A model generated the notes under the pieces. It saw only the letters and a program-made list of their open reading frames with translations. It made no database searches and had not been told where the DNA came from. DNA of 64,000 nucleotides, from IMG/VR virus record IMGVR_UViG_3300025120_000019; one strand, written 5' to 3'. Both the position numbers and the translations under genes were made by a program. Each line of letters starts with the position of its first letter. Position 1 is the first letter of the stretch. Shown piece after piece: positions 2,961 to 32,027 of the stretch. Source of the stretch: a virus.

Positions 2961-5900
2961 ATGGAATTTTTTAAGAGGCAGAGTTTACATAAAAGAACAG
3001 TAGGTGATACTAGTGTTACTTTAACTGCTGACGGTGAAGTATTAATTGCACCCGAAGGAGCAAAAACAAGAGTTACTGGTGACTTAATAGTTTCTGGTAA
3101 TGCAACAGGCCCAGCAACAACAGACATCTTATATGTTACTCAAGATGGTAGCGATACCAACGACGGTAAAAGCATGGGAAAAGATGGTGCTAAAGCAACA
3201 ATTAAAAGTGCCGCCGCTTCGGCTTTACCAGGCACTACTATTATTGTAGGACCGGGTGATTATTATGAATCAAATCCGATTACATTAGCAGACTTTGTTA
3301 CAATCAGAGGTGCAGGAGATTTAAGAAACACAAGAATTTTTCCAAGGAATAATACACAAACAATATTCTTTATGGGCAATGGGTGTTACTTACACGAACT
3401 TACATTTAGGGCTTTGAGATATCCAGGTTGGTGTGTTGAAATACGCCCAGGTGCTAGAGTAACTACATCACCTTATGTACAAAATTGCACTAACATGAAT
3501 GGACCTTGGTTAAATGATGGTACAGAATTTATTCCTTTTGAAACTGTACAAATTGCTGGAATAACGCCAGGTGCCAAACCATTAATGCTTGAAGATTACC
3601 CAGCTCTGTCAACTGACAAGCAAATTAACGATACCGGCGGCGGTGGAGGATTATACGTTGATGGTAATAGTTACGATCCAACATCATTAGTATTCAGCTT
3701 TGTTGCTGATGCATTTACACAAATTTCTCAAGGTGGTATTGGGTTTTGGATTGACAACTTTGGATATACACAGATTGTTAGTTGTTTCTCTGTATTTTGT
3801 TCTGTTGGATTTAAAGCTACAAATGGTGGCTACTTATCAATTTCAAACTCGGTTTCTGACTTTGGACTTAAAGGTATTGAGTCTGACGGATTTTTTCCAC
3901 AAGCATATACCACAGCTCGGGCTGAACAAAACTATTTTAGTACTGTTGCAAGTGTAACAATACAAACTGCTGGAGCAGGATATACCAGTGCACCAACAGT
4001 AGTAATCGAAGCACCTACTTTAGGAGGCGGAACACAAGCCACAGCAACTACTTCAATTGATGCTACTACTGGTAAACTTAGTGCTATTACAGTTCAAGAT
4101 GCTGGTAGTGGATATACAACTACACCATTAATTACTATAAGCGGTGGAGGAGCATCAGCACAAGCTACTGCCGTTGTAAATTTAGCAAAAAATATTACAA
4201 TAAGATTAAACAGTTTACGTGATAAACCGCAAACAGGTAGTATTGTTAAATTTGAAGCAGATCCAACTTATTACTACATTACTGGTAACACACAAATAAA
4301 TGCACCATTTATATATGATGAAACTGTATGTAGACGAGACCTTAAAAGAATAATTGATGCTGTCACTTCTGATATTGTACTAGGAACATCTTTTCAATCA
4401 CAAGCCGCAGGAACGAGTTATCTACGTAGTACATCTACTAAAGTGTTAAACGATCAAAAAGCACCAACAATATATGGCATTGAGCAAGCACGTGACGGTA
4501 TGAAAGCACAGACTACAAATCTTGCAATGGAAGAAAATATTGATTATTTGTTTAACATTATTACTAGCACTATTAGTGAAGGTGATAGTAGTATACAACC
4601 TGATAATAGTAACGATGTAGCGGCTACATTTAATGATTTACAAACTATTGACCCTGCTAAAATTGAAGCAAAAAATAATATTTTAGAAAATAGAGAATTT
4701 TTAGTTGAAGAACTTTCTGCATATATTAATGATCAATTTACTGAATTAAGCTATAACCAAGCTACATATACTGAAAATATGACTACACTTATAGACGGTA
4801 TAGAAATGTTTGCAACATTAGAAAGTAATCAGCAAATTGTTAGAGCGGCTGAAGAATTTGAGCTTAGAACAAGATTTAAACCAATGTTGTTGTCAAGTTT
4901 TAGATATTTGAGCGACAAGTTTGAAGCACTAGCAGATGTTCAAGCAAGTAGTATTGCACTTACAAATGTTAAAGAAGGCTTTAATCAATTTATGAATATT
5001 ATTGATGATGGTGATAGTTCAGCTATTGTGATAGTATTTCCAGAACACGCTGGTGTTGATAATAATAGGGCTGATGCAAAAGATCAAATTATTGCAAATA
5101 AAAACTTTTTGATAGCTGAATTTAAAACATTCTTATCAGCTGAAGTATCAGGGTTCGTATATGATGATGCAATATATACCACAGACTTAACAAACATTCT
5201 TGATGCTTGTATATTTGATGTTCTTTATGGCGGAAATAGTAGTACAGTACAAGAAGCAAAATATTACTTTGCTAACGGAGCAGGCGGGGTGGCTTTTTCT
5301 GCACTTGCTCCTGTAAACAAAGCGGCATTAGTTAATGCTTTTGCAAGATTAAGATTTGTAATACAAAGAGTTGTTAGAGGTTTAGCAGTAACACCAACTT
5401 CTGGAAACGGTGTAGCTCAAAACTTTGCAAGCAACAATGCCACACAAAGTGAAGCAGATTTTATAGATACTTTGATATTTAATATACAAGATATGATTGA
5501 TAATTTAACATTATCAAGATTACCAGCTACATTAACAAAACCTCTTTACACTGATGAACCTACATTACAAATAACAGCAGGGCAAAAAATTCTTCTAAAC
5601 AGAAATAACTTTATTACTGATGCAATAGCTTATAACTTAGCAAATAATCCTACTTTAACATACGATCAAGACAAATGTAGAAGAGACGTTGGGTACATTG
5701 TTGATGCTGTAAATAGAGATATCCTTTTAGGAACTAATACAAATAGTATTCAAGCAGGTCAAGCATATAAGAGAGCAAACACTGCATACCTAAATGTTGA
5801 GCAGAAGCCAGCAACAATATTAGGATTAAGAAAAGCAAAGGCATTAGGTGAAGCCGCAGTAATATCAAGCACTACAATCAAAGACGCTGTTACTGCAAGG

Positions 5901-8900
5901 TGGGAAGATGTTTTAAATATAATTGAAAATGATGAATTACCGTCAGAAGGTTTGTCATACCCTGATCCGGGGCCTGCTACAAACGAATTAATTTATGGTG
6001 TTGATCAGGTAATTGCAAACAAAGCATTTTTACAAGAAGAACTTGTTGCATATATTAATGCAAATAATTATGTATACGACAAAGATAAGTGTAAAAGAGA
6101 TACAGGACTAATAATAGATGCCGCCGCATATGATACATTGCTTGGCACTAATTATAATCAAAGAGTTGCAGGATTATCATATCAAAGAGCAAATAGTGCA
6201 TACTTGCAAAGCAATCAAAAAACACAAACTATTGCAGGAATAAACTTTGCAAAAAGTAAATCATCTGATGCAACAACTCATTCACCATCACAATCAACTG
6301 TGGAAGCGGCATTTGACGAAGTAATAGATATTATTAACAATGGAGCAACATCAACAGAACAAGCGGCAGATCCGTTAACATTTACAGATCCAAGTACAGC
6401 TACAACTGGTCAAAAAAATGCAAGACTACAATTACAAGCTAACAGAAATTTTATTGGAAAAGAAGCTGTAGCATATGTAAATAGTAACTATGTAAATTAT
6501 ACATATGATGTTACAAAATGTCAACGAGACACAGGCTTAATTATAGATGCTGTAGCAAGAGATGTTGCATTAGGCACCAACTACAGCTCAGTGACAGCCG
6601 GACTTGCATATTCAAGAGCAAGTGCATTAACTAATAAACAAGCACAAGGAATACAAACTCTTAATGCATTTCAATTTGTTAGAAAAGAAACATTAGAAAA
6701 AGGTTTAAGCGATGTTGGAGAAGCAAGGGCTTTAGCAGGTTACAACGAAGTCATAGATGTTTTCCAAAATGGAGTGCTTAGTACAGATGTTTCTGCAGAT
6801 GCTATAACATTTACAAATCCAACAGGAGCAAGTCAAGATTTAATTGATGCTAAAAATCAATTACAAGCAAACAGAGAATTTATTGCACAAGAAACATTAG
6901 CTTATGTAAATGCAAATAATCCAAAATATGATGTATCAACAGCAACTTACAATCAAACTACTGGAGATATGGTTCTTACAATAGGATCACATAGTTATAC
7001 AACAGCTGATTATATAAGATTAGGAAAAGAATCGTTAGCTTTTAGTTGTACATATGGACAAGGCAATCACACTTATGTTGGTGGTACAGCAAGCAACGCA
7101 GTTCAGTCAGGTGGTAACTATCTACATACATTCGTATCTGCTGTAACCAACGGAGTTACATCAAATGCAGGTAATTTACCAAACGCAGTTACAGGTGCAA
7201 CATATAATGCATCAACTGGTGAGATGATTATTACCTCTGCTTCACATCTGTTAACAACGTCAAACACACTTGCTATAGCCGATGATGCACTCTCTTTTAC
7301 CTGCACAATGGACGGCAACACAACAACTAAAACGTATCCAAGATCAACAGATCCTGCGTCTGGAGCAACTCTTGCTATTAGTGCAGTAACTACTAATACT
7401 ATTACTATAAATGTAGGCGCATCACCAATTGTAAATCATGATGTTACTAATGCAACATACAACTATGCTACTGGCATAATAGAAATGACTATTGGCAGTC
7501 ACTCACTGGCTGTAGGAACAAGTATTAAGATTGCTAATGATGCATTAACATTTACTTGTGATGCTGATGGTAATGCAACAAATCATACATATCCAAGATC
7601 AACTGATCCAGCAAGAGATACTGCATTGTCTATTACAGCCAAAACTGGAACTACAATATCAGTAAACGTAGGTATTATTTCAAGTTCAACAAGTTCAACT
7701 AAAAAATATCCACGTAACAATGCAGATCCTGCTTATAGTGCTAATTTAAGAATTACTGCGGTAGCTAGTAATACTGTTACAGTTAATGTTGGACCAAACA
7801 CAACTAATCCTACTGTACACACATTTGAATCTGCAACACCAGGTGCAGTTACAACTGGATATAATCAAGATAAGTGTTTAAGAGATGCAAGATATTTGGT
7901 TGATTCTTTATCACATGATATTCTATATGGAGGCAATACTGCAATTAGAACAGTTGCAAATAGTTACTTTGATGATGGCACTCCGCAACTTCCAAATTCA
8001 CAGCAAAAAACAGCTATTGTAAATGCATTCCAACATATTGCAACTAATATAATTGGTGATGTTGTACAAAATATAACAGTTGCACCAACAAGAACAAAAT
8101 TTACACCTGGAGCAGGTACAACGTATGATCCTACAACAGGCGTATTAAAATTAGCAGTCGGTTCACATAACTTACAACTAAGTGATTTGATTAAAATTGA
8201 ACCAAATGGGGTTACATTTAGTTGTACATATGGAGCAGGTGCTCATACTTATGTAGGCGGCACAGTATCAAATGCAATTACTATAACTGCAGGAAGTGTT
8301 CAAAAAGACGTTACAAATGCAACATATGACTATGCAACAGGTGTTATGGAATTAACTATAGGCTCACATAGCTTTACAACTAGTGATACTGTGACAATAG
8401 CTACAAATTCATTAACATTTACTTGTGATGCAGATGGAAACGCAACTAACCATACGTATCCAAGAGTAGGAGACCCTGCTCATAACACTGCTATAGCAAT
8501 ATCAGCAGTAACTGGTACTACTATTACTGTAAATGTCGGTGCTGTTGGATCATCTAGTTCAAATAAGTCTTATCCAAGAGCAACTGATCCAGCAATACAG
8601 CGATCATTTACACCTGCCACAGGAACTACATATAATCCAGCAACAGGAGAACTTGTTTTAGAAATTGGCTCGCATAGCTTAACAACAAATATGCAAGTTG
8701 TGATTGCACCTAATAGTATGGTGTTTACTTGTACTACAGATGAAACAAAACCTAAGCTTTATCCTAGACGAACTGACCCTGCATTTCAAAAAGGTTTAGA
8801 TATAACAGCCGTTACAGCAACAACAATTACAATGAATGTAGGAGTATCATCAGATACTAATCCACATACATTTATTTCTGCAAAAACAAATTCTGTAACA

Positions 8901-11900
8901 ACAGGTTTACTTCCAATTACTGCTTTAGATGCAACATCAATTACAGTTGATGTTGGAATTTCACTTACTGCGTTGCAAGCTCATACTTGGATAAGCTCAA
9001 TAGCAGATAGTGTATCAGTTGGAAACTTTACTGTGCAAGATACATCTAATGGCCCGGCTAGTAGTTCAGAAGTGTCTGCATTAGAAGGCGATATAACAAT
9101 AGTTACAAATGCTATAACTGCAAATAATAACTCAGGCGTACCAGCAGAAGTTACACCAAGTGTTACATGGGCATCACAATCTATCCAAGCAGATTATAAC
9201 ACTATTGTAGCAAATAAATCTGCATTACAAACAGCAACTACAGATTTTATAACTGAAAAATATCAAGGATATAATTTCAACGCAACAAAGTGTGAAAGAG
9301 ATACAAAATATATAATTGATGCTCTTTCATATGACTTATTGTACGGTGGTAATAGTGCTACTATAGATGTAGCTAAAAGTTATTGGGTAGGAACACAAAC
9401 ACAAGTAGCTGATCAAAAAGAAGAAACAGCAGTCACCATAGACTATGTTGGAAAAATATGTGACGAAATAATTAGAGATAAAGATGTTGATTATAAATGG
9501 CAAGGTGTAGTAAATCAAGATAAAACTAATGGTGCTGGTACAATTATAGAAGTAGGTAGGGTACAAACACTAGTACAAATTATGGAAGATGTAATTGAAA
9601 ACGGACTTGATAATCTTCCATCTACTACATATCCAGATTACCCACAATGGGTAGATACAGATGTTGTACAAGGTATCTCAAACTTGTTTAGTCAAAAAGA
9701 AACAATTAAAACTGAAACTGTAGATTATATTGATGCAACATATAATGGTTACTCATATGATCAAGCTAAGTGCAAGCAAGATACTGGATTCTTAATAGAT
9801 GCAATTACACATGATTCATTTTATGAATCTAATATTCAAACACTTATTGCAACTAGAGCATACTTTTTAGGATCTGCTCAGTATCTTCCATCTTATCAAG
9901 TAGCAAACACAGTAACAGCATACACACATTTACAAAGTGTAATAGACGATTGTATACAAGGTGTAGCAGTTACTAAATCTGCAGGAAATCCACTTAATCA
10001 AACACTAAGTGGTAATTATGGTAATTCTACTGTAGCAAATACTTTTACAGGCTTGATTAATATAACAAAAACAGCAATAAACAATCAAACACTTGTTGGT
10101 ACTCCAGCAGAAATAGAACCAAACTATAGCTGGATATCACAGGCAACAAGAAACGCTTGTTTAGAATTTTTTAGTCAAAGAGCTTACTATCAAACTGAAG
10201 TTATTAACTATCTGAATACAAAAGTTATTGGCTTTACTTATAATATTGATAAGTGTAAAAGAGATACTGGATATATTATTGATGCCGCTGTGTACGACAT
10301 GGTTTATGGTGGTGATAAGCAAACACAGAGAGCCGCAACTGCATATTATAGTGGTACAGTATTACAGGTGACTAACAATGCATATACTGACCAGTGTGAA
10401 ATAACTGCATATGCTAATTACTATCTTGCAGATATTATTGCTAAAGTTTCAATAAATGATACTGTAACAAAAAGTTTTGGCAACACATTTAATCAGATAC
10501 AAACTATACCAGACGGAAGTACCTTGATAGGAACAGCAACATATCCGGGTGCAACTTGTGAATTATTGATTAATAGATTAGCAGATTCGATTTATAATAA
10601 ATCAGTAAGTGGTTGGTTTGAAAGAGAACCTGACTTAACATTAGGTAACAGCATTTATTTGACTGAACGTAATACTATACTTGCCGCTGAACAAACTATT
10701 GTAGACAATGCTATTTCAGCATTAAACTTACAATATGGTGGTAGATTTGATGTTAACTTATTTCCAGGAATAATAAGTGTAACTACTGATAAGTTAGGTA
10801 GCTTGCATAATGTAAGTACAGTAAGTACTTCAGGTCACGCATTTGAATATGTAGGTGCAGGTATAACATATAATGCACTACCGTTCTTTGGAGGTACGGC
10901 TGTTCCTTCAACAGAAATTATACAAAGTAATCAAGGTAAAGTTTTTGCAGGTGGTACTGTTGACCAAATCGGTAACTTTAGAGTTGGTGACTTCTTTGGT
11001 GTAAATGCATTAACAGGTAGCATCACACTTAATGCTAATGAAATTGATTTATCAGGATTAACTAGTGTTGGACCTTTCATTAGAAACGGTATTCCAGTTG
11101 GTGTAGAATTAAAAGAGGTTAGTGATAATGAAGCACTTGTTTCAAGTTTAGGTACACAGGATTTAAATACTGCTCCTACTCAAAGAGCTGTTTCTAATTA
11201 TGTTGAAGCTAGATATCTAAATAAATTAACTGGTGGTACAGTTCAAGGAAACGTTACACTAAACGGAAACTTTGATGTAAATGGTAGTGTTATTTCAACT
11301 ACTTCAACTGGTGCTTTTGAATTATTAAACACAAACGCAACAACAGTTAACGCATTTGGACAAGCAACGGCTATAAATTTAGGCGCCGCAAATGGACTAG
11401 TAACTATTAATCCTGATATGACAGTTCAAGGCGCATTAACTGTAAATGGTAATTTGATATTTACAGGCGATGTTGCAATTACTATACCGGACGAAGAATT
11501 ACAAGCATATAGTATTACAGAAGGAACAGAAGATTACATTAGTATTAATACTAGATCAGGTGAAGAATCAGTAACCTTTGGTCAACAACCAAGTGTAATT
11601 ATTGCTAATACAACTGATAGTACAAGTAAAGATACAGGGTCGTTAATAGTAGATGGTGGAGCCGGTATTGAAAAGAATATTAATGTAGGCGGCAGTGCAG
11701 ACATTGATGATAACTTAACACTAGGTACAGACAGAACTGTAAACGCACATACTATTAAAGGTAAAATAGATATTGATATACCAGATTCTGGTATTAACAA
11801 TTTTAGAATACACGAAAACCTAAGTGAATACTTAGACATTGTAACAACAGATGGTTCAGAATCTATAAAACTTGGTACAACACCTAAACTTGTTGTACAA

Positions 11901-13313
11901 AATAACACAAATGCTACAAGTAGCACAACTGGTGCAGTACAAATTACAGGTGGGTTAAGTACACAACAAGATATCCATGCTGGTAATGATATAACAGCAG
12001 ATAGAGATTTAAAAGCTGATAGAGATGTTGAAGTAAATGGCACAAATATTATTACAGATGAAACAGGTGCTTTCAATGTATTCAATACAAATGCTACAAC
12101 AATAAATGCGTTTGGAGCCGCTACATCAGTTAACATAGGAGCGGCAACAGGTACATTAACTATAAACAACGAGGTTGTAATTGTAGATAGTGTTGCTGGT
12201 TTCCAAATTCCGGTTGGTACCACAGGACAGCGTCCAACAAATGTTACAGGTAGAATTAGATTTAACACTACTACAAATGCATTTGAAGGTTACGATGGTG
12301 TAGCGTGGAATAGCTTAGGTGGTGTAATTGATGTAGATCAAAATACATATATCTTAGCTGAAGATACACCTGGTGCTGATAACAATGAATTAGACTTTTA
12401 TACAGAAGGAACTAAACGGGCAACACTTTCTAACACCGAATTTAATATTGGTACAACAACTATTCTAAATGTACAAAATACTACTGAAAGTACAGATTAT
12501 CAAACCGGCGGATTAGTTGTATCAGGTGGTGCTGGAATAGCTAAAGATTTACACGTACAAGGATTTATAGGTGGTGATAATAGCGGAGTGCTTACACTAG
12601 CCAATGTTGCAAGTGATAAAATATTAATAAAAGCAGATACTATTGAATCTCCTGAATCGTTAAAAATTATTACTAATGCACCGGATAGTGCCGCCGACGA
12701 TGTAGTATATCCAGTTAGTTTAGCACATCATAGTGTTAGTGGATCTCCAACAGTTGGTAGTGGTACAGGACTTAAATTTGAATTAGAAACTTCAAATAAC
12801 AATTTTGAAGTAGGCGGACAAATTGAAGTTACAGCAATTGATATTACTGGTAACCAAGAAGATTTTGATATGGTATTCAAAACAATGGTTAACGGTACAG
12901 CTGGTATTGAAAAATTTAGAATAAGTGACACAACTAGTACATTTACAAATAATGTACAAGTAGATCAAAGCTTATTTGTTACAGGTGTGCTTGATGCTTC
13001 AAGCTTTAGAGGTAGTGTTGTTGCTGATGATAGTACTGAAATTATTGACGCTATTAATAATAAACTTACTGTTGTAAACGGAGCAATAGGAACCTTATCA
13101 TTAACAACTGATTTAGAAGTACAATATGGTGGTACTGGTAGAAGTAGCTTTGTTCCAAACGGTATTGTTTATGGAGATAATACAAGTCAATTGCAAGTTA
13201 CAGAAGCGGCAGGTAGTGCAGATATTAATACATCATTCCAAATGCTAACAGTAACAGATTCAGGCGATGATACTCCAATTTGGACAGACACAATAGACGG
13301 CGGTTCATTTTGA
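2961..13313 (+). CDS. Giant tail-fibre/virion protein (3450 aa): beta-helix-like domain, ~10 helical KCxRD repeats, 6 inserted beta modules, fibre shaft
   Basis: LYVTQDGSDTNDG..ATIKSA..VGPGDYYE pectin-lyase-like start; visible internal repeats; TG(A/S)LxVxGG fibre repeats; C-terminal IDGGSF. Confidence 0.8.
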   Translation: MEFFKRQSLHKRTVGDTSVTLTADGEVLIAPEGAKTRVTGDLIVSGNATGPATTDILYVTQDGSDTNDGKSMGKDGAKATIKSAAASALPGTTIIVGPGDYYESNPITLADFVTIRGAGDLRNTRIFPRNNTQTIFFMGNGCYLHELTFRALRYPGWCVEIRPGARVTTSPYVQNCTNMNGPWLNDGTEFIPFETVQIAGITPGAKPLMLEDYPALSTDKQINDTGGGGGLYVDGNSYDPTSLVFSFVADAFTQISQGGIGFWIDNFGYTQIVSCFSVFCSVGFKATNGGYLSISNSVSDFGLKGIESDGFFPQAYTTARAEQNYFSTVASVTIQTAGAGYTSAPTVVIEAPTLGGGTQATATTSIDATTGKLSAITVQDAGSGYTTTPLITISGGGASAQATAVVNLAKNITIRLNSLRDKPQTGSIVKFEADPTYYYITGNTQINAPFIYDETVCRRDLKRIIDAVTSDIVLGTSFQSQAAGTSYLRSTSTKVLNDQKAPTIYGIEQARDGMKAQTTNLAMEENIDYLFNIITSTISEGDSSIQPDNSNDVAATFNDLQTIDPAKIEAKNNILENREFLVEELSAYINDQFTELSYNQATYTENMTTLIDGIEMFATLESNQQIVRAAEEFELRTRFKPMLLSSFRYLSDKFEALADVQASSIALTNVKEGFNQFMNIIDDGDSSAIVIVFPEHAGVDNNRADAKDQIIANKNFLIAEFKTFLSAEVSGFVYDDAIYTTDLTNILDACIFDVLYGGNSSTVQEAKYYFANGAGGVAFSALAPVNKAALVNAFARLRFVIQRVVRGLAVTPTSGNGVAQNFASNNATQSEADFIDTLIFNIQDMIDNLTLSRLPATLTKPLYTDEPTLQITAGQKILLNRNNFITDAIAYNLANNPTLTYDQDKCRRDVGYIVDAVNRDILLGTNTNSIQAGQAYKRANTAYLNVEQKPATILGLRKAKALGEAAVISSTTIKDAVTARWEDVLNIIENDELPSEGLSYPDPGPATNELIYGVDQVIANKAFLQEELVAYINANNYVYDKDKCKRDTGLIIDAAAYDTLLGTNYNQRVAGLSYQRANSAYLQSNQKTQTIAGINFAKSKSSDATTHSPSQSTVEAAFDEVIDIINNGATSTEQAADPLTFTDPSTATTGQKNARLQLQANRNFIGKEAVAYVNSNYVNYTYDVTKCQRDTGLIIDAVARDVALGTNYSSVTAGLAYSRASALTNKQAQGIQTLNAFQFVRKETLEKGLSDVGEARALAGYNEVIDVFQNGVLSTDVSADAITFTNPTGASQDLIDAKNQLQANREFIAQETLAYVNANNPKYDVSTATYNQTTGDMVLTIGSHSYTTADYIRLGKESLAFSCTYGQGNHTYVGGTASNAVQSGGNYLHTFVSAVTNGVTSNAGNLPNAVTGATYNASTGEMIITSASHLLTTSNTLAIADDALSFTCTMDGNTTTKTYPRSTDPASGATLAISAVTTNTITINVGASPIVNHDVTNATYNYATGIIEMTIGSHSLAVGTSIKIANDALTFTCDADGNATNHTYPRSTDPARDTALSITAKTGTTISVNVGIISSSTSSTKKYPRNNADPAYSANLRITAVASNTVTVNVGPNTTNPTVHTFESATPGAVTTGYNQDKCLRDARYLVDSLSHDILYGGNTAIRTVANSYFDDGTPQLPNSQQKTAIVNAFQHIATNIIGDVVQNITVAPTRTKFTPGAGTTYDPTTGVLKLAVGSHNLQLSDLIKIEPNGVTFSCTYGAGAHTYVGGTVSNAITITAGSVQKDVTNATYDYATGVMELTIGSHSFTTSDTVTIATNSLTFTCDADGNATNHTYPRVGDPAHNTAIAISAVTGTTITVNVGAVGSSSSNKSYPRATDPAIQRSFTPATGTTYNPATGELVLEIGSHSLTTNMQVVIAPNSMVFTCTTDETKPKLYPRRTDPAFQKGLDITAVTATTITMNVGVSSDTNPHTFISAKTNSVTTGLLPITALDATSITVDVGISLTALQAHTWISSIADSVSVGNFTVQDTSNGPASSSEVSALEGDITIVTNAITANNNSGVPAEVTPSVTWASQSIQADYNTIVANKSALQTATTDFITEKYQGYNFNATKCERDTKYIIDALSYDLLYGGNSATIDVAKSYWVGTQTQVADQKEETAVTIDYVGKICDEIIRDKDVDYKWQGVVNQDKTNGAGTIIEVGRVQTLVQIMEDVIENGLDNLPSTTYPDYPQWVDTDVVQGISNLFSQKETIKTETVDYIDATYNGYSYDQAKCKQDTGFLIDAITHDSFYESNIQTLIATRAYFLGSAQYLPSYQVANTVTAYTHLQSVIDDCIQGVAVTKSAGNPLNQTLSGNYGNSTVANTFTGLINITKTAINNQTLVGTPAEIEPNYSWISQATRNACLEFFSQRAYYQTEVINYLNTKVIGFTYNIDKCKRDTGYIIDAAVYDMVYGGDKQTQRAATAYYSGTVLQVTNNAYTDQCEITAYANYYLADIIAKVSINDTVTKSFGNTFNQIQTIPDGSTLIGTATYPGATCELLINRLADSIYNKSVSGWFEREPDLTLGNSIYLTERNTILAAEQTIVDNAISALNLQYGGRFDVNLFPGIISVTTDKLGSLHNVSTVSTSGHAFEYVGAGITYNALPFFGGTAVPSTEIIQSNQGKVFAGGTVDQIGNFRVGDFFGVNALTGSITLNANEIDLSGLTSVGPFIRNGIPVGVELKEVSDNEALVSSLGTQDLNTAPTQRAVSNYVEARYLNKLTGGTVQGNVTLNGNFDVNGSVISTTSTGAFELLNTNATTVNAFGQATAINLGAANGLVTINPDMTVQGALTVNGNLIFTGDVAITIPDEELQAYSITEGTEDYISINTRSGEESVTFGQQPSVIIANTTDSTSKDTGSLIVDGGAGIEKNINVGGSADIDDNLTLGTDRTVNAHTIKGKIDIDIPDSGINNFRIHENLSEYLDIVTTDGSESIKLGTTPKLVVQNNTNATSSTTGAVQITGGLSTQQDIHAGNDITADRDLKADRDVEVNGTNIITDETGAFNVFNTNATTINAFGAATSVNIGAATGTLTINNEVVIVDSVAGFQIPVGTTGQRPTNVTGRIRFNTTTNAFEGYDGVAWNSLGGVIDVDQNTYILAEDTPGADNNELDFYTEGTKRATLSNTEFNIGTTTILNVQNTTESTDYQTGGLVVSGGAGIAKDLHVQGFIGGDNSGVLTLANVASDKILIKADTIESPESLKIITNAPDSAADDVVYPVSLAHHSVSGSPTVGSGTGLKFELETSNNNFEVGGQIEVTAIDITGNQEDFDMVFKTMVNGTAGIEKFRISDTTSTFTNNVQVDQSLFVTGVLDASSFRGSVVADDSTEIIDAINNKLTVVNGAIGTLSLTTDLEVQYGGTGRSSFVPNGIVYGDNTSQLQVTEAAGSADINTSFQMLTVTDSGDDTPIWTDTIDGGSF
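4310..10740 (+). repeat. Tandem ~140-160 aa helical repeats (Y-D/N-xx-K-C-x-R-D-xxx-I-I-D-A) in fibre 1
   Basis: Cys codons at 4329, 5676, 6090, 6519, 7875, 9291, 9771, 10254, plus two Cys-less copies. Confidence 0.85.
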
Positions 13314-13441
13314 TAGCTTGGCATAAAAAACAAATAGAATGGTATAGTGATAAACTAGGTATTGGCTGGTATGGTATAGCTTGGATTGCATTCGCAAAAG
13401 GTATAATACTAACAATTATTATTGACTTTTTGTTGTTCTAG
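13310..13441 (+). CDS. Small membrane protein (43 aa, TTG start; not in ORF track)
   Basis: MIAWHKKQIEWYSDKLGIGWYGIAWIAFAKGIILTIIIDFLLF*; TTGA overlap with upstream stop; hydrophobic C-terminus. Confidence 0.55.
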   Translation: MIAWHKKQIEWYSDKLGIGWYGIAWIAFAKGIILTIIIDFLLF

Positions 13442-13471
13442 ATCTATAAAACACCCACTATTTTAATCCTT

Positions 13472-13479
13472 GATAAATA
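13472..13479 (+). promoter_or_regulatory. T4-like late promoter (GATAAATA)
   Basis: TAAATA core upstream of second giant fibre gene. Confidence 0.6.
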
Positions 13480-13558
13480 CATTTAAGAGCGATTTCTATC
13501 GTAATTAAAATTATGGGCGTCTATATAGACTTGACTCGTACCTAAATAGGAGGCCGTT

Positions 13559-16500
13559 ATGGCAACAAAAATCAAGCATAAGCGTAGTGCGGTTGCTGGG
13601 AAGCAACCAAGTGTATCGCAGTTAGAATCAGGTGAATTAGCTATTAACACCGCAGACGGAAAAGTATACCTTTTGCGTGATGATAATACAGTTCAAGATA
13701 TAACAAAAAGAGTTTTTGAAGGAAATACAGAATTAAAAGTTGATGATTTAGGTGATAGTACGTCAGCCGCAATTACTGCAAGAGTAAATGCTGACGATAA
13801 AATGATAATCACTGATAACGGCATCAATATAAATGATGATGTACAGATTGAAAATGCCAACACACTTACACTTAAAGAATTAACAGGATCTGGTGCAGAC
13901 GGAGTAAGTCTAAAAGCACCTGATACGCTTGACGCTGGATACTCACTAACATTGCCTCCAAATAGTGGTACTATAGGTCAGCTTTTAAAAACAGATGCTA
14001 ATGGAAATTTAAGTTTTACTGATCCTGATATTTTTGGCGGTAATGTTGTCTACGTTTCTAATGAACAAGGTGATGATATAAATGACGGTCAAAGTGCTCC
14101 TGTAAAAACAATTAAACGTGCCTGTCAGATTGCTTCTGGGTTAGTTTATAATACAGACGGCACAACAAATAATAAACGTGTAAACGTTAAAGTTGCTGTT
14201 GGAGATTACACTGAACAAAATCCTATTATTGTTCCAGATAACACAGTTATTAAAGGTGACGGCTTACGTGGATGTATTTTACGTCCAGCAAATGCTAACG
14301 AAGATATGTTACGGGTGCGTAATGCTTGTTACTTTGGTGAAGTTACATTTAGAGACGGTGTAGACGAGAACGGAGTTCCATTAATTACTTTTGATTATGC
14401 TGTTGCTTTTGATGATCCGTTTGATGTAACTGTAGCTAGGGTTGGCTATACAAATATGCCAACTTCTAGACCCTTTATTACTACTTCACCATATATCCAA
14501 AACTGTTCCATACTTTCATTCTTAGGCGGTAACGGAGCAAAAATTGATGGTAGTAAAATTACATCTCCAAACGTTGGACTAGTACCTTCAGAGCAAGAAA
14601 ACCCAGTTGTAGGATCAATACCTGAACAAGGTAAGTCAATGGTTGCTAACGCCTTTACTATTCTGTCCTTCGGCGGTACAGCATGGCGATTAACCAACGA
14701 TGCTTATGCACAGATTGTGTCTTGTTTTGAAATCTTCCTACTAAACGGTGTTTATACACAGTCCGGCGGATATTGTTCTATTACTAACTCCGCTACAAAC
14801 TTTGGTTTGTATGCGTTGAGATCAAGTGGGTATTCACCTAAAGCTTTTGAATTTGATAGAGCATTTGTATCGTCAACAGGTGCTTTTGAAGGATTACAAA
14901 CTTTAAGTGTAGTTGGTATTAATCGTGCTTCACCAGTTGAAGAATTTGTATTAAGATTTAGAGACCCTGATTATAAAACTGCACGTGACTTGTTATTATT
15001 AGCTAAAAATACTATTGCAACTGATACCGTTTCATATATCAATACTCAAATTGCTGGTGCATCTGCAAGCATTTGGGCAGGATATGATTACGATCCACTG
15101 CAAGCAAAATGTGAAAGAGATACAAAATTATTAGTAGATGCTATTAGGTACGACGCGGCGTTTAACACAAATTATAGATCAATTGCATCTGTAATTACAT
15201 ACTTTAATGGACGTCAAACACCAGCAGTATTTGAATCACAAAGACTACAAGAAGTAGATGCTTTTACACAAGCAAAAGCATTTACTACAAATATAACACA
15301 AGATTCCACATATGATGCAAGAGTTAACGCATTATGGGATGAAGTTATTGATATTCTGGAACACTCTGGAACATATACTGCTGGCACAGGTACTTCATAT
15401 AATGCGGCAAGCGGTTCACTTATTTTAAACGTAGGTGCTCACGATTTAACTGTAGGAACCCAGATTGAAATTGCTCCTAACAGCTTATCATTCAGCTGTG
15501 ACTATGGACAAGGTGCTCATACTTATGTAGGTGGTACTGTAACAGATGCAATTACAATTACTTCAGGTAGTGTTAAAAGAGATGTAACTGATGCAACATA
15601 CAATCATGCAACAGGCGTAATGGAACTTACTATAGGTTCACATAGTTTTACAACTAGTGACACAGTAACAATAGAAACAAATTCTTTAACATTTACTTGT
15701 GCGGCTGATAGTAATGCAACAAACCATACCTATCCAAGAGTAGGAGATCCAGCCGACGGAGTTGCAATAGCTATTTCAGCAGTATCCGGTACTACAATAA
15801 CTGTTAATGTAGGAGCAGTTGGCTCGTCAAGTTCTACTAAAACATATCCAAGAGCAGTTAATGCATCTAACGGAGATCCAGATCCGGCATACAAAACTCC
15901 TGTTACAATTACCGCAGTAAATGCAACTACAGTTACAGTAAATATTGGTAACGCAGGATCAGCCGCTTCGTCAGCTCATACTTTTGAAAGTGCTACAGCT
16001 AATTCTATTACAGTTGCAGGTACTGGAACATTTTCAGATCCCACAGGCTATAATACAAGCTACCTTGCAGGCTACGGTAATGCAAGAGCACAATTAATTG
16101 CAAATAGAAAATTTATTGTTGCAGAAATTACAGCCTATGTTAATAATCAAATTGCCGCTGGAACTGCACCATTTTCAAAAACATTTACATATAGTAAAGA
16201 AAAATGTGAAGAAGATATTGGACATTATTTAGATGCATTTTTATATGATTTAACATATGGTGGTAACTTACAAACTATTGATGCCGCTAATCAAAATTTT
16301 ACTAATACAACACAAGCAGGTGGACTTGCTAATAATAGACTATCAGAATATGGCGAAAAAGCACAAACACTTGCCGCTTATGTTAGATTGAAAGAAGTAT
16401 TAGGTCAAATTGTTCAAGAACAAACAGTAACTAAAAGTGGTGGAGGAGTTCATACTTATGTAGGTGGTACTGTAACAAATGCGGTTACTATAACAGCACC

Positions 16501-19500
16501 AAATCAATCAACTGTTCAAAGAGATGTTACAAATGCAACATATGATCCTGATACAGGTCTAAGTGTTATTACTATAGGTTCACACAGTTTTACTACAAGC
16601 GATAAAGCAACAATAGTTACAAATTCATTATCATTTACTTGTGATACAGATGGTAATACTGTAACCAAAACATATCCAAGATCAACTGATCCAGCCGCTG
16701 GCACTGCTTTATCAATAGCATCAGTAACTGGCAATACTATTACTGTAAACATAGGTAAATCTGGAAATACTGTAACACAGGATGTATCAGGTACAGCAGG
16801 CGGATCAGATACCGCAGTTTTTGTACAAGCTAGAATGCAAGAAGTTATAGATTTTATCACAGCAGATGGAGCAACACAACCAACAAAAATTGATCCAGGC
16901 GTTAGCTGGGTTGCACAAGCGTATCAAGATGACTTAATCCGATTAAATGCAGAAGGTCAAAAAAATATTGCACAAAATGTATCTGGATATATCGAAACAC
17001 AAACTGAAGCCGCTAAATGGTATAATTTTGTATACGATTCAGCCAAGTGCTTAAGAGATACAAAATTAATTGTTGAGGCTGTAGCAAAAGATACCTGGGA
17101 TACTGGTAACAGATATTCAAGAAGTGCTGGACTTTCTTATTACACAAAAAATTTAGCAGACTCGTCACAAATTAGTATTAGTGGACAAGAGAGACAAACA
17201 ATTGATGCAATCAAAAAAGCAAGAGATTTAGCATTAACTTATATTACATCAGTATCTGCGGGAACACAAAACTTTGTCTCATCAAGATTTGATATTGTTA
17301 CTACAATTATTAATGATCCTGGTGATTTACCAGATGCACAAGATGTAAGTTCTGAAGGTGATACAACAAACAATTTTAAAACTAATGCTACTGAAAAATC
17401 ATTTAATGCGGCTACAGATGTAAACATAGGTGTTGATGTCATTACTATTACTGGACATGGATTTGCAAATTTACAAAAAGTAATTTATACTGCTAACGGC
17501 AATACACCATTAGGTGGACTAGACGAAGAACAAACATACTACATAAACATAATTAATGACGATGAATTTAAACTTACTTTTGATGAATCTGGAGATTTTC
17601 CAGTCGATATTAGAGTATTAAGCACAGGAAGTCATAAGTTCCTATCAGGAGTAATTGAATTTTTTGTACAAGAGATAACATCTTCGCACACAACATACCA
17701 GCAATTAGAACTAGAGTCTGGATCAGAAAGTTTTGTTTTTACTCCAGGTAAATCGATAGCTGGTACAACAGGTTCAAGTAATAACAGTGCTATTGTTTCT
17801 AGTTGGGAACCAGCAGAACGTAGACTTATTGTAAGTGTTGAACAAGTTGCAGTTGGAAGTAGTTTGTTACGTATTCAATTTGATGCTACAAGTGTTATCA
17901 CAGCAGACCACGCAGGAACTCCAAATGCAAGTATTGGGGTTAATGCCGTTCAAGCAAAAACAGGATTAGGTAGTGCTACATTTTCAGTAAAAGCTACAGA
18001 CGGAAGTAGTAGTTTAACAAATTTAGGCAATTTACCTGAAAGTCAAGTATGGTTCCATAGACCTAGTATTGTTAACTCATCTTCTCACACATGGGAATAT
18101 GCAGGTTCGGGTACAGACTATAACGCACTACCGCAAAACGGTGGTAACACCAAAGCAGAGTTTGAACAGTTTGAAGAACTACCAGGGCGTGTATACTCAT
18201 CAGGTACAAACGAACTTGGTGACTTTAAAGTTGGTGACTTTATTACAGCGTTTAACAGAACAGGTAACATTACATTTAGAAACAAAGTACAGGTGGACGA
18301 ACTTGATGCTTTGAGATTAAGTGTTTCCGATGTTATTATTGAAGAAATTTCAACAAGTGTTAACTTAGGTGATGACGAATTAGGTGGTGCAACTAATACT
18401 AGATTATCAACCCAGTTAGCTGTGAGATCCTTTATTAGTAATAGACTAGGTGGATTTGTTGATAAAACTGTGAGTACTGCGGCAGTACCGGGTGCTATTG
18501 TTCAACTTAATGTTAACGGACAATTAAACGCTGACTTGATTCCTGCTACACGACAGTTTACAAATACAAATACTTTTGGATATCTTTCAAGACTAGATCA
18601 AATTGACGATATACCGGCTGTAGATTTAAAGGCTGGCGATATTGGTACTGAAAACTATGAACAACAAGAATTAACATTAAGTGGAAATATTTCAGCGGCA
18701 GACGGAGCAACAATAACACAACCTACTTCTTTTGGTGCTACAGGCTATGCTAAAGGACTCTATGGTAATAGTGGTAACATTTTGGTTGCAAGTATTACTG
18801 GTGAATGGATTGCGGGTGATGATAGTACAGGGTCACAATGGGCAACAGGCGCTGGAAATAATTTATTTGTAGACGGTGTTGACTCCGGAGTATATCCAAC
18901 TGCACTTGGCGTAGTTAGTGAAATAGTTGATAACTTCTTTATAAAAACATCTAATAGTAGTCAGTTCTTAGTTTTAGATCCTACACCAAATTATACATTT
19001 ACAACCAATGCTATAGCAAATGCGGCTAGAACAAGTAATGTATCTACTATTACAACCAGTGGCGCTCATAATCTACAAATTGGAAATACTGTCAATGTTA
19101 CTATAGCTGATAATTCAACATTTGATGAAAATGCAGTAGTTATTAGTACACCTACTGCAACATCATTTACATATGCAAATGTTGATCCTGATAATGTTGG
19201 TAGTTTTAGTGTAACTAGCGGTACAGTAGGGACAGTTGTAAAAAGTGCTGATGGTGATGCACAAGGTAAAGTTACAGAAACAAGATTTGGTGTAGCAACT
19301 GGTGTTGACAATGCGGCAATTACTGGCGGTAGTTTATATACCCCAACTACCGGAAGTAAAATATACAAAAATATTCCAATGACAGCCGTAACAGGAAGTG
19401 GAACTGGTGCTAGGGCAAATATTACAGTCACAGCAGGACAGATAACAGATGTTGACCTAATAAGAGGTGGTACAGGATATGCGTCAGGCGACGAGCTTGG

Positions 19501-22500
19501 TGCAAGCCCTACAGACATTGGCGGCACAGGTAGTGGTTTTAAAATTGTTTGTACTGCTATTGAAAAACGTATATATGTTGATATTATTGGTGGTGTGTTA
19601 TTTGTTGCAAGTACATCAAGTGTTGACTTTGTTGAAGATAACACAGCTATTGCAAATAAGAAAACAATAAACTTAGATGATAACATTTCTAAAAACTTCT
19701 TAGCTGGTTCATCCGGTGGTAGTGGTAACGTAGACTATACTAATGATAGAATTACAATTACAAACCACGGATTTACAACTGGTGATCCTGTTTCATATGA
19801 CACACTTACAAATGTGCCAATTGGAGGGTTAACAAATACTCAAGTTGTTTATGTAAAAGTTATTGATGCAAATACAATTGAATTGTACGAAGGATTTTCG
19901 TTACTTAACAAAGTAGAGTTCTTAACAACTCCAGCAAATAATAATCATAACCTTACAAGAAAAACTGTTAACATAACTGATAATAGTATTATTGTTGAAG
20001 GACACGGATTTACAACAGGTAACGCACTTAGACTTGTTACCTTGTCAGACGGTAGCTCATCAAATGCATTATTTTCTGTAGGTGGAACAGCTATTGCATC
20101 AGGTTCTAGATTCTTTGTTGGTTCTGTAACAACAAACTCTTTTACATTGCATACGTTAAGATCAGATGCTTTAAGTAGTATTAATGATTTGGTTACTAAT
20201 GCACAAGACATTGACGGTATTGGTGTTGGTAGTGCTGAGGTAATACAACAAAATGTTCAAGTTATTTCGCAAGTAAACTCCTCTAGTAAAACAGTATCTA
20301 ATTGGAATTCACTTGCTGTTACAAATATTGACGCAAGTAACATTATTTCTGGTATAGTATCTCCAAGTAGATTGGGTGGAGCAGGTACTCCTAATAGTGA
20401 TACATTCTTAAGGGGTGATAGTGCATATTCTGTAGTTGTACAAAAATTGAAAAAAGCATCAACCACAGATAATCCAATAACTCTTACAGGTAGTAGCATT
20501 AGTCAAGAATTTTATGGAACAGTAAATGTAGGTGTAAACAATATTGATCTCAATCCTGGTGGAACTTTTAGTACACTTGGAACATCACGATTTTTACAAT
20601 CACAATTTGATGTTGCTTCAGATGCTAGTGGACAAGTTTTTCTTAAGGATGGTGTAATAGATGCTGGTACATTAGATTCACTAGATAGTGCATACTTCTT
20701 GAACCCAGCAAACTTAACATCAGCTGTTCCTGTAAATAGAGGCGGCACAAACTTAACCACATATGCTGTTGGAGATATAATTTATGCTTCAACAACAGGT
20801 ACATTGAATCCGTTAAATATTGGTAGGAAAGACTCTGTTTTAAAAGTATCAGCAACTGGTATACCAGAGTGGGGTACTGCACTTGATCTTGCAGAAGGAT
20901 TAGATGTTGGTGCCGCAAAACTTACTTCGTCAAGCACAGGTGCTGGACAAGTTTATAATGCAAATGTTTCAAGCTTAGAAATTGGTGGCGCCGCAACAAA
21001 TATTGCTTTTGGTAGTACAGCAGATACAAGGAATATATTTACACTACTTGCTAGTTACGAAGCAAACGCAAGCCAATCAGTGGTAGCTAACTTAACCAGT
21101 ATTACTCAAACTACAAATGGTGTTGCGGCAAATGGCGATAAAGAAATTCCATTAACATCAACGACAGGAATATTATCAGGTATGCTTATAACTGGTAGTG
21201 CATCTATTCCGGCAAACACAACAGTAACTGGTGTAACTGAAAACTTTATATATCTAAGTGCAGAAACAACAGGTACTGTAGCATCTGCACTAACATTAAC
21301 TTTTACTTATACACCATTTACATTAGGTATAAACGTTGGTGATACAATTAATGTTGCTTCAAGTACAATAGCAAATCTAGATGGGTCATGGCCTGTAACT
21401 GGTGCTACAGAAAATGCTACATCGTTTACTTTCCAAACAGATGCTAATGTTACAGCATCAAATGGTGATACCCCGGCTGGTGCATTAACTATTGATTCAA
21501 ACTTTGTAGTTAAAAATACAAAGTTTGTGTTAGGAAATGCAGAACACGCAACTACTCCAGAACCTGGAAGACTCTTAGGCACATCTGGTATTGGTACAGA
21601 TAAATCCGGAGGAAGTATTAGTATTGAGGGCGGTTTAGGTACAGGTAACGGAACAGGCGGAGACGTAATTATCAAAACAGGTGATGTTTCAACCACTGGT
21701 GATATTAAGCATACAAGTAAACAGCGTATGAAAATTGATACACAAGGTCATGTAGGAATCGGTGAACATGAGCCGGACACTACATTACATATTAAAGAAA
21801 CAGCTGGAACAGATACTACTTTTACAATGCAACGAGGTGCAAATACTGATAGAAACCAAATTGTATTTGAGCAAGCAGACGGAACGGCTGTTGGCCATAT
21901 TAAGCATGATGCTGGTGGTAATGATATTGTTATTGGTAATTATAACGGATCTGCTATAATAGATAGAATTAAAATTACAGGCACAAATGGTAATGTAGAA
22001 ATTACATCCGACCTAGAAGTAGACGGTGGAGATATTACTACGGATCAGGCTACTTTTAATCTAATTAACACAAATGCTACTAGCGTAAATGCATTTGGAG
22101 CGGCTACTACTATACAAATGGGTACAGGTGGCGATGGTGGTGGATCAACTACAATCGGACATGATTTAGTTGTACAAGGTGATCTAACAGTTAACGGAAG
22201 TCAAACTACTATTAACAGTACAACACTTACAGTTGATGATAAAAATATTGTTATTGCAAGCGGAGCCGCAGATAGTTCAGCGGCAAATGGTGCAGGTATT
22301 ACTATAGATGGTGCAAGTGCTACTTTAACCTGGGATCACGCTAATACTACTTGGGATTCAAATCAAGACTTTAATCTTGCTAGTGGAAAAGAATACTTTA
22401 TAAACGATGCTAGTGTATTAAATGCAACAACATTAGGATCAGCAGTAGTTAATTCCAGTCTACAAACATTAGGCACAATTACTACAGGTGTGTGGAATGG

Positions 22501-30284: not shown

Positions 30285-32027
30285 TTATATTATTAAATCC
30301 CAACTTCCTCTTGGATAATATCCATCAACTGAAAACTGCCAGTAAAAACTATTCCAGTAAAACTGCTGACTTGTGTTTAAGTTTGTTACATAAGTTGGTG
30401 TTTTTGTTTGACTAGCATCAAAAATTATTTGCCATTCAGTACCAGACCATTCACAAATATCTCCAGTATCTGCTACAAAGTCTCGGTCAGTTGTAGATTT
30501 CCACGCATCTGCTCCATCTTCGTTTATGTATAAAACATACCTTACTTCTTCGCCTGGTCTTGGCATATCGTCTGGCTGTATTTTTAATACTAAACTACCA
30601 TCAATAGTTTCTTGTGATGTAACATCAGTTTTACGTATATTATTAATATACAAATCAATATCGTACACTCTATCAGCATCTACTTCTGTTTCTACTCGTG
30701 TGGTGCTATTACTTGCGGTAAATATTCTTTCAATTTGTCCGCCTATGGGTTGTAAAAGTAAAAGTCGAACACCGTTTGCTTTTACAGTAGTAGGATCAAA
30801 GTTACGTGGATTAATAATATAATCAACTGTTCCTGCATTTTTAGTTGGCCCTTGTAAAAGTGTATCTGCTGGTAAAGTATCAACATCGTATGTCAAAACA
30901 ATCTCTTGTGTATTATTATTAACAAAATCAAATGTAGCTACAATAGATGTTAATAATTCAGCTCTTTTTAGTCTTATTTGACTTATTCCTGGTTGGAATT
31001 TTGCTGGAGCTTCTGCTTCTAAAACATTTAACCAATTTATGTTATTGAGATTTGCCGCATTTTTAGCAAGTTTAGCTAATCGTTTTTCAATTAATATATC
31101 AAAATTTCTATAGGTTGCTGTGTTAACATTAGCTACATTTATATTTCCGTCATTTGAAGTTTTTATAACAGTAGTTCTACTATCTTCAGGGCGTAATCCA
31201 TCATAAACAACATTACCATCTTCATCGTATTTTGCTTCTTTTGGTTCATTTGGATTATTACTAACTACTGACCCATCAGGTAATACGACAAATCCGTCTG
31301 CAACTTTTGTTTGATCACTTGTATCAGGATTAAATCCATCTAAAGTTATTGTATTAGCATCTAAATTTAACACACTATTAATTATTTCAGTAATAACACC
31401 AAGCTTTTTAACTTTTGTTGGCGGTGAAATATAAACAGGAGCAATAAAACTTAATGTAGCAATATCTATTTCTGTTTCTGTTCCCACCGGAATACTTCTG
31501 CTACTAAAATTAATATTTTCAAGTTGTAGTACAGTTAAACTTGTCCAATCTACATAATTGTCATTTGTTTGGAATTCTAAATCAGGATTAAACATCATAA
31601 AAATTTGTTCTAATAGCTGTAATTTTTGTTCTGTATTAGAACTCCATACATCCACATTTACACCTAAAACATAAGGCGTCGGATGTAATCTTTCTACCGT
31701 AAATCCGCTTCCTTGTGTAGTTGAATATGTTTGACTAGTTTCATCAAATGCACGTTCTTTAATATTAATTTTACTTATAAAACTACTATCACTTAGTCTG
31801 CTTCTATCCATTTGCATACTAGTAATATATACAGCCATTCTTGGTACAGAAGGCATTTTATTTTCACTATTATCTCTAATAATATTTGCAACTTGTCTTG
31901 TCAAATCACCATATGTTACAGGCACTTGACGTAACTCTTCGTCACCGTCTTTGTAATTAAAATTACTGAAAGCTCTTACAATTTGTGTAAGATACCTTCT
32001 TATTTGTCCATCATAAAAATATTGCAT
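30285..32027 (-). CDS. gp15: Tail sheath stabilizer/tail completion protein (T4 gp15-like) with C-terminal extension
   Basis: YFYDGQIRRY..F..VPVTYG..PRM..PTPY..QKLQLLEQI...FNP pattern; next to neck genes. Confidence 0.75.
   Translation of the reverse strand: MQYFYDGQIRRYLTQIVRAFSNFNYKDGDEELRQVPVTYGDLTRQVANIIRDNSENKMPSVPRMAVYITSMQMDRSRLSDSSFISKINIKERAFDETSQTYSTTQGSGFTVERLHPTPYVLGVNVDVWSSNTEQKLQLLEQIFMMFNPDLEFQTNDNYVDWTSLTVLQLENINFSSRSIPVGTETEIDIATLSFIAPVYISPPTKVKKLGVITEIINSVLNLDANTITLDGFNPDTSDQTKVADGFVVLPDGSVVSNNPNEPKEAKYDEDGNVVYDGLRPEDSRTTVIKTSNDGNINVANVNTATYRNFDILIEKRLAKLAKNAANLNNINWLNVLEAEAPAKFQPGISQIRLKRAELLTSIVATFDFVNNNTQEIVLTYDVDTLPADTLLQGPTKNAGTVDYIINPRNFDPTTVKANGVRLLLLQPIGGQIERIFTASNSTTRVETEVDADRVYDIDLYINNIRKTDVTSQETIDGSLVLKIQPDDMPRPGEEVRYVLYINEDGADAWKSTTDRDFVADTGDICEWSGTEWQIIFDASQTKTPTYVTNLNTSQQFYWNSFYWQFSVDGYYPRGSWDLII

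Follow-up and report, generated by a model that had tools for sequence, protein, structure and literature searches.

In cyanobacteria and algae, phycobiliproteins are familiar as free subunits of the light-harvesting antenna. The core-membrane linker ApcE attaches its bilin without a lyase, and its attachment cysteine lies elsewhere in the sequence. Outside light harvesting, globin-fold bilin binders have been described as BBAG-type proteins by Rockwell et al. 2023, who mention phages for the PcyX reductase only and no phage globin (PMC10151467). A literature search, which did not cover subscription journals, returned no description of phycobiliprotein-like domains in phage fibers, and the records of T4-like cyanophages annotate their giant virion proteins only as structural, tail-fiber or baseplate proteins. 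Here we analyze a stretch of 64,000 nucleotides (the window) from IMG/VR virus record IMGVR_UViG_3300025120_000019, in which two giant proteins of the tail-fiber type, putative virion components, carry 13 copies of a helical repeat. From sequence comparisons and a structural model, this repeat very probably belongs, as a divergent member, to the phycobiliproteins within the globin fold. With or without a pigment, it adds both a new branch and a new architecture to the phycobiliprotein superfamily.

When a hidden Markov model (HMM) built from six copies of the repeat was searched against both giant proteins, 13 helical units were found, 10 in protein 1 (R1 to R10) and 3 in protein 2 (R11 to R13), with domain E-values of 1e-56 to 1e-10, far beyond chance (Table 1). 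Each repeat is an all-helical domain of about 125 residues, and the domains are strung head to tail via linkers of about 20 residues. The cysteine stands in the motif K-C-x-[RQE]-D in 11 of the 13 units and is replaced by tyrosine in R2 and R3. All 11 cysteine-bearing repeats keep the aspartate, and 9 keep the arginine. Uninterrupted neighbors are spaced 138, 143, 160, and 161 amino acids apart, cysteine to cysteine. A first-pass annotation of this DNA had counted about 13 repeats, 11 with cysteine and with neighbors 138-161 amino acids apart, in a region from 4310 to 17330; the repeat HMM and the motif positions agree with these figures, the repeat block extends from about nucleotide 4260 to 17407, and the peptides that the annotation quoted are present in the giant proteins.

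The same annotation proposed that each repeat is a phycobiliprotein-like domain of the globin fold whose Cys-x-Arg-Asp motif corresponds to Cys84, Arg86, and Asp87 of phycocyanin, and several kinds of sequence comparison concur. A profile of 12 repeats from the window had just one match in PDB at E ≤ 10, which was phycocyanin alpha at the Cys84 motif (E = 0.2). We then used a deeper profile of 149 repeats: 80 related viral loci gave 483 full repeats, which were reduced to 137 non-redundant ones and combined with the 12 from the window. Of the 27 matches of this profile in PDB, 26 were phycocyanin chains (best E = 0.008), and profile positions 6-59 aligned with phycocyanin residues 39-103, that is, helix B, the loop, and helix E. 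When the 149 repeats were scanned singly against Pfam, 21 matched PF00502 (best E = 5.3e-5), while the next family had 3 matches. One repeat of the same family, from a relative with a complete genome of 399,796 bp, scored 30.6 bits against PF00502, above the cut-off of 22.2 bits. By phmmer, 18 of the 20 PDB matches of that repeat were phycobiliproteins, and its alignment was gap-free over residues 63-157 of allophycocyanin beta. Finally, when the 149-repeat profile was aligned by hhalign with four phycocyanins (alpha and beta) from plasmid pREB3 of Acaryochloris, the probability was 90.3% and the E-value 1.5e-6, with columns 4-105 on phycocyanin residues 31-140. In both the HMMER and the hhalign alignments, cysteine falls on cysteine, and K-C-x-R-D takes the position of Lys83-Cys84-x-Arg86-Asp87 in phycobiliproteins.

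The predicted structure points to the same family. We modeled R6 (6405-6842) with AlphaFold2, using a 149-row alignment of phage repeats only and no templates. The model has six helices, with a predicted local distance difference test score (pLDDT) of 91 and a predicted template modeling score (pTM) of 0.86. Among the roughly 49 PDB matches listed by Foldseek there were only phycobiliproteins, including phycoerythrin, phycocyanin, allophycocyanin, ApcE, and cryptophyte subunits (E = 0.011-0.1 and template modeling [TM] scores up to 0.67, with root mean square deviations [rmsd] of 2.6-3.1 Å for the best). Comparison of the model with 48,161 representative chains by VIA-align placed phycobiliproteins or ApcE in the top 8 positions (Z = 12.4-14.4, rmsd 1.8-2.5 Å over 114-123 residues; the best had Z = 14.4 and rmsd 2.0 Å). 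These were followed by the bilin-binding globin domain of photocobilin (Z = 12.2 and 11.7), globin-coupled sensors (about 10-11), and ordinary globins. Since helical models can reach a Z of 14 by chance, the case for the fold lies in this ranking together with the sequence evidence and the common register, rather than in Z alone. Thus, the AlphaFold and Foldseek check that the first-pass annotation had suggested for a single repeat yielded a globin-like fold with phycobiliproteins as the top matches.

The model also indicates which part of a phycobiliprotein the repeat represents. Helices A, B, E, F, G, and H of the R6 model can be superposed on those of solved phycobiliproteins, with model residues 1-121 on phycobiliprotein residues 35-159, so the repeat is the globin core without the X-Y hairpin. 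In the chain, only about 38 residues precede the cysteine, versus 83 in phycobiliproteins, and the next repeat follows directly. An ordinary heme globin was considered and rejected, as the repeats have no conserved histidine: the highest histidine frequency is 8%, in one column of the 145-position profile.

The repeat family is large, with at least 1,443 representative clusters at E ≤ 1e-3 and up to 36 repeats per protein. We examined conservation in 1,355 repeats from 150 representative clusters (residue numbers here and below are positions of the repeat profile). Six polar site positions are nearly fixed, even though repeats are only 15-30% identical to each other: Cys39 (94%), Arg41 (94%), Asp42 (98%), Tyr69 (98%), Gln or Glu at position 81 (94%), and Thr85 (88%). 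Asp53 (99%) and a G-G-N turn are likewise conserved. By hhalign, Tyr69 falls on the tyrosine of the D-D-Y-L stretch of the alpha subunit, which we take to be Tyr110 of phycocyanin, presumably a contact of the alpha-84 bilin. In the window, seven domains keep all six residues (R1, R4, R5, R6, R8, R10, and R13), four have one or two changes (R7, R9, R11, and R12), and two are degenerate (R2 and R3).

The repeats that lack the cysteine are informative about the site. There are 75 of them, from 39 proteins; with <60% identity as the criterion, 67 count as independent. In these repeats the remaining five residues of the site persist 57% of the time, versus 97% otherwise; for fifteen control conserved columns the corresponding values are 75% and 83%, and Asp53, Asn59, and Gly57 stay. 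In 43 of the 75, phenylalanine, tyrosine, or tryptophan replaces the cysteine, and small residues near the site (Gly44, Ala65, and Ala88) are also lost more often. R2 and R3 follow this pattern, with tyrosine for cysteine and co-loss of other site residues. The joint decay of the site residues and the aromatic replacements suggest a pocket for a ligand, which a repeat either retains in full or fills up. The pattern speaks for a function of the site; it does not tell which ligand would be bound. Cysteines outside the motif are rare (a frequency of 0.15%), and 84% of the repeats have no second cysteine. An intradomain disulfide is therefore rejected; the first-pass annotation had named disulfides as a finding that would speak against its proposal. 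We also considered a thioester or ester cross-link of the cysteine with Gln81 or Thr85 and inferred that it is unlikely, as Gln and Glu occur at position 81 in a ratio of 55:39 and this position is on the same helix face as Thr85.

Given a conserved and co-evolving Cys-Arg-Asp pocket, bilin binding is the most economical reading. During assembly in the cell, each intact domain would acquire a bilin, a linear tetrapyrrole. This pigment would become thioether-bound to the cysteine, either autocatalytically, for which ApcE is a possible model, or via a lyase of the host, and a fiber chain would then carry up to 8 pigments (protein 1) or 3 pigments (protein 2). Judging from the sequence pattern, we consider covalent binding of a bilin at the cysteine of the intact domains a real possibility, somewhat short of probable.

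Several observations weigh against this reading. The pocket may differ from that of phycobiliproteins, because the repeat has no X-Y hairpin and its B-E loop is the shorter one. Neither the whole giant proteins nor ten single repeats scanned from the window matched PF00502. The literature search found no report of colored or fluorescent phage particles, although a color could have gone unnoticed: with a rough estimate of about 100 sites per virion, the absorbance would be only about 0.02 at 1e12 particles per ml. No heme oxygenase, bilin reductase, or lyase was found in the window, either by tblastn with the enzymes of relatives or by Pfam scans of ten open reading frames (ORFs) of suitable size, as the first-pass annotation had also said of the bilin enzymes, and CpeT and CpeS lyases were not found in the five relatives searched. 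Also, two phages with genes for making bilins lack the repeat. Pelagibacter phage Mosig has a pair of genes for heme oxygenase and ferredoxin-dependent bilin reductase (HO and FDBR), and a search of it with matching positive controls found no repeat. Similarly, P-SSM2 carries pebA and ho1 (PMC1079782), and the repeat profile, which matched the positive controls, found no repeat in it.

On the other side, two uncultured relatives have repeats and an adjacent HO and FDBR pair: the complete genome of 399,796 bp, which has 44 repeats in three ORFs, and a 170-kb contig that is rated 77% complete and has a terminase of the T4-cyanophage type. In five near relatives no HO or FDBR was found, which is uninformative, as these are fragments that are only 14-32% complete. 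The reductase of the 399,796-bp jumbo relative shares 48% identity with its counterpart in Mosig and about 25% with PcyA of cyanophages. The first-pass annotation had named the repeats as a candidate acceptor for the pigment made by phage PebS, PcyX, and heme oxygenase. Because Mosig and P-SSM2 have enzymes without repeats, the two can occur apart and the repeats are not a general acceptor; this weakens the proposal, although two relatives have both.

We made three side observations on these genes. First, in the 399,796-bp genome, the HO and FDBR pair (338-342 kb) adjoins ORFs that resemble a small heat-shock protein and a fragment of DnaK, and the reductase is closest to that of a phage of SAR11 rather than to cyanophage PcyA. 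Second, in S-PM2 (NC_006820), a cpeT gene (bilin-lyase-like) lies 1.4 kb upstream of the repeat-bearing ORF of 3,792 amino acids (163069-175392). Third, the NC_006820 annotation places a series of tRNA genes within this ORF, but the frame is open throughout, so the tRNA coordinates in this record look shifted.

The strongest alternative is that the repeat is a structural module only: a helical domain derived from phycobiliproteins that serves as a rigid bead of long fibers, with a network of Cys, Arg, Asp, Tyr, Gln, and Thr that stabilizes the fold or the packing of domains or chains and holds no chromophore. The domains do lie in fiber shafts, with as many as 36 in one protein, and the lack of a lyase or bilin enzyme in the window, the bilin-making phages without repeats, and the lack of reports of pigmented virions would all be expected. 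However, at 15-30% identity the best-kept residues are the triad that contacts the chromophore in phycobiliproteins, and the site residues decay as a unit while the structural columns Asp53, Asn59, and Gly57 stay. Moreover, lone cysteines are avoided elsewhere in the repeat, and bulky aromatics take the place of the motif cysteine, as if a cavity were being filled. We therefore regard a purely structural role as unlikely, though a serious contender.

The pocket might instead be functional with another ligand or chemistry, such as another host metabolite or tetrapyrrole, a metal, a sugar of the receptor, or a redox-sensitive thiol. A conserved and co-evolving site speaks for a function and not for a particular ligand, and the next structural neighbors, photocobilin and the globin-coupled sensors, are other ligand-binding globins. 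Also, the host may not be a cyanobacterium, as the terminase is nearest to those of PA5oct-type jumbo phages. But heme is disfavored by the lack of a conserved histidine, the register of K-C-x-R-D is that of bilin attachment, and the enzyme pair of the complete relative is precisely the one that makes a bilin, so we think that a different ligand is quite improbable. Least of all do we expect the likeness to phycobiliproteins to be convergent or a modeling artefact and the repeat to be an unrelated helical bundle: the single E-values against PDB are marginal (0.008-0.2), helical models often reach a Z of about 14 by chance, and single repeats from the window fail Pfam, but independent methods converge on one family and one register, the E-value improves with the deeper profile, one family member is above Pfam's curated cut-off, and the model was built without templates from phage repeats only.

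To see where the repeat occurs, we compared two tblastn queries to 50,697 records of cultured phages. All of the matched records (40 of 40 and 111 of 111) were Synechococcus or Prochlorococcus phages, "Cyanophage" records, or one "Marine" record; the cultured jumbo phages that are nearest to the window by terminase were not matched by these queries. A motif search of 185,579 cellular genomes gave only 8 loci; since each of them is in a metagenome bin and the taxonomy of these bins is inconsistent, the repeat family looks viral. The repeat profile found 5 copies in P-HM2 (in gp7 and an ORF of 3,682 amino acids) and 9 in S-PM2, with the motif intact in the copies that we inspected, and no copies in P-SSM2 or P-SSP7.

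These four cyanophages have been compared for adsorption. Liu et al. 2019 reported that P-HM2 fails to adsorb in the dark, that adsorption of S-PM2 depends on light but is independent of host photosynthesis, and that P-SSM2 and P-SSP7 adsorb in the dark; they proposed light-sensitive receptors or tail fibers as the cause (PMC6628666). Repeats are present in both of the light-requiring phages and in neither of the dark-adsorbing ones. With four phages only, this is a lead, or a testable coincidence, and not evidence. Bilin-bearing fibers could conceivably act as a photoreceptor of the virion, with a conformational switch that permits adsorption only in light; we consider this improbable. If it were true, photoreceptor fibers would account for adsorption that needs light but not photosynthesis in cyanophages such as S-PM2 and P-HM2, and some phage bilin pathways would have a target in the virion.

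Whatever the ligand, a phycobiliprotein fold occurs here in long tandem arrays of putative virion fibers, with its pigment-attachment site under strong selection. If bilin is bound, then virus particles would be pigmented, which would be a new property for a phage, and the light-requiring adsorption of S-PM2 and P-HM2 would become a testable question. The repeats may also provide a purpose for the genes for heme oxygenase and bilin reductase in giant aquatic phages.

Some of the helical repeats are interrupted by a second kind of module, of 85 residues, with nine full and two half copies in the window (Table 1). In R7, three and a half of these modules stand between the first helices and the Cys helix, and in R12 a module precedes the last helix; these positions place the modules in the B-E and G-H loops. 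The three copies after R7b are probably inside its G-H loop, a placement that is inferred. Within the module, a glycine and a cysteine are invariant, and a tyrosine, a histidine, and a proline are nearly so (T-F-x-C ... Y-P-R-x-x-D-P). AlphaFold gives a confident small beta barrel (pLDDT 93). The module has no significant match in PDB by sequence or by fold, and there is only a weak likeness to the barrel domain of phage endosialidases (TM 0.56-0.59, E about 0.5). It may bind a sugar or a receptor. At the DNA level, 89 nucleotides in a beta module (7521-7609) match a gene for a structural protein in Synechococcus phage ACG-2014g with 82% identity, which suggests exchange of modules with cyanophage fibers. 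Nowhere else in the first 6 kb of the gene for protein 1 did megablast match a cultured phage.

Both giant proteins are assigned to the tail-fiber type from their matches to fiber families, the C-terminal chaperone of protein 2, and their position by the tail genes. PHROG tail fiber and virion structural families match both of them (E = 1e-145 to 1e-193). Peptidase_S74 chaperones are a mark of trimeric fibers and spikes. Immediately upstream of protein 1, an ORF of 110 amino acids (2625-2957) matches the N-terminal part of phrog_1276, and the C-terminal part of phrog_1276 matches beta modules within the giant protein.

Downstream of the repeat region are genes for a sheath stabilizer, tail sheath, tail tube, endolysin, large terminase, a gp32-type single-stranded-DNA-binding protein, UvsX, and a helicase. 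The source is an uncultured marine jumbo myovirus, a tailed phage whose tail is contractile. In cultured phages, the closest terminases are those of the PA5oct group of Pseudomonas jumbo phages (53% identity), and further phages of 350-470 kb come next. With the terminases of two uncultured IMG/VR contigs (144-400 kb), the terminase of the window shares 75% and 65% identity; the second of these contigs is the complete 399,796-bp genome. These identities indicate a jumbo lineage that is distinct from the T4-like cyanophages, with which it shares fiber domains. Completeness ratings of 14-32% for close relatives of 50-115 kb point to a genome of about 350 kb. The window also contains sugar-nucleotide and tailoring genes (51645-54693), namely a nucleotidyl transferase, an FkbM-type methyltransferase, and a cytidylyltransferase fused to a cupin of the mannose-6-phosphate-isomerase type; we count a weak match to sulfotransferases (15-602) with this set. 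These genes could have a role in decorating virion proteins.

Table 1. Features of the two giant proteins and of the tail and packaging genes in the window. Repeat-unit residues are those found with the repeat HMM, numbered within the giant protein.
Feature	Position (nt)	Strand	Repeat unit (residues)	Basis
Giant virion protein 1, tail-fiber type, 3,450 aa, R1-R10	2961-13313	+		ORF translation; PHROG tail fiber, virion structural, and short tail fiber families
R1, without first helix pair; six-residue site intact (C,R,D,Y,Q,T)	4260-4628	+	447-550	repeat HMM
R2, degenerate: Cys to Tyr, Arg to Glu, Asp to Asn, Tyr69 to Phe, Thr85 to Leu	4656-5054	+	567-684	repeat HMM
R3, degenerate: Cys to Tyr, Arg to Thr, Gln81 to Asn, Thr85 to Leu	5064-5564	+	706-863	repeat HMM
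R4, intact site	5565-5984	+	870-1006	repeat HMM
R5, intact site	5985-6407	+	1010-1148	repeat HMM
R6, intact site; domain chosen for modeling	6405-6836	+	1149-1291	repeat HMM, AlphaFold2
R7a, first helices (A/B) of split domain	6840-6965	+	1294-1335	hmmsearch, profile positions 2-44
Three and a half beta-barrel modules in B-E loop of R7	6924-7793	+		model pLDDT 93
R7b, helices E-G of split domain; C,R,D,Y,Q kept, Thr85 to Ile	7800-8099	+	1632-1707	repeat HMM
Three beta-barrel modules after R7b	8100-8855	+		
R8, intact site, long G-H loop	9177-9656	+	2073-2231	repeat HMM
R9, Cys kept, Arg41 to Gln	9660-10142	+	2235-2393	repeat HMM
R10, intact site	10134-10568	+	2394-2534	repeat HMM
Giant virion protein 2, tail-fiber type, 3,929 aa, R11-R13	13559-25348	+		PHROG tail fiber families; C-terminal Peptidase_S74
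R11, Cys/Arg/Asp kept, Thr85 to Glu	14969-15427	+	478-615	repeat HMM
Beta-barrel modules between R11 and R12	15374-15961	+		
R12, Cys kept, Arg41 to Glu, Tyr69 to Asn; beta module in G-H loop	16064-16543	+	843-982	repeat HMM
Beta-barrel module nested in R12	16514-16768	+		
R13, intact site	16943-17407	+	1151-1253	repeat HMM
Peptidase_S74 intramolecular chaperone, C-terminus of protein 2	25049-25213	+		Pfam PF13884, E 5.8e-12, 46.1 bits vs cut-off 22
Sheath stabilizer	30285-32027	minus		
Tail sheath	34405-37722			
Tail tube	38496-39830			
Large terminase	45046-46632			

We compared the phage repeat to four known systems. First, it shares with the light-harvesting phycobiliproteins (PF00502; C-phycocyanin alpha and beta, allophycocyanin, and phycoerythrin) the helix order A, B, E, F, G, H, the Lys-Cys-x-Arg-Asp motif at the Cys84 position, and the tolerance of insertions in the B-E and G-H loops. 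However, identity is about 15%, a conserved Asp stands in place of Arg93, the B-E loop is shorter, and without the X-Y hairpin the repeat would not form the canonical alpha-beta monomer. Also, instead of free 17-kDa subunits of the phycobilisome, there are up to 36 domains per fiber polypeptide, and the chromophore is only putative in the phage.

Second, the domain of ApcE (PDB 4xxi and 7eyd; Z = 14.3 and 13.9) also sits within a large multidomain polypeptide, and it has a big insertion in the B-E loop, where R7 of the phage has beta modules. ApcE differs in that it has a single such domain, keeps the N-terminal helices, and is a cytoplasmic component of the antenna. Third, the extended family of bilin-binding globins outside antennae (BBAG-type proteins, and photocobilin, PDB 8j2w) shares the globin fold, and photocobilin is the next structural neighbor. 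These proteins are cellular, soluble, and single-domain.

Fourth, the giant virion proteins of T4-like cyanophages (the ORFs of 3,792 and 3,340 amino acids of S-PM2, and gp7 and the 3,682-amino-acid ORF of P-HM2; PHROG 5342, 701, and 4527) share both the repeat with K-C-x-R-D and the beta modules. They belong to another phage lineage and have fewer repeats, with 5 per genome in P-HM2 and 9 in S-PM2.

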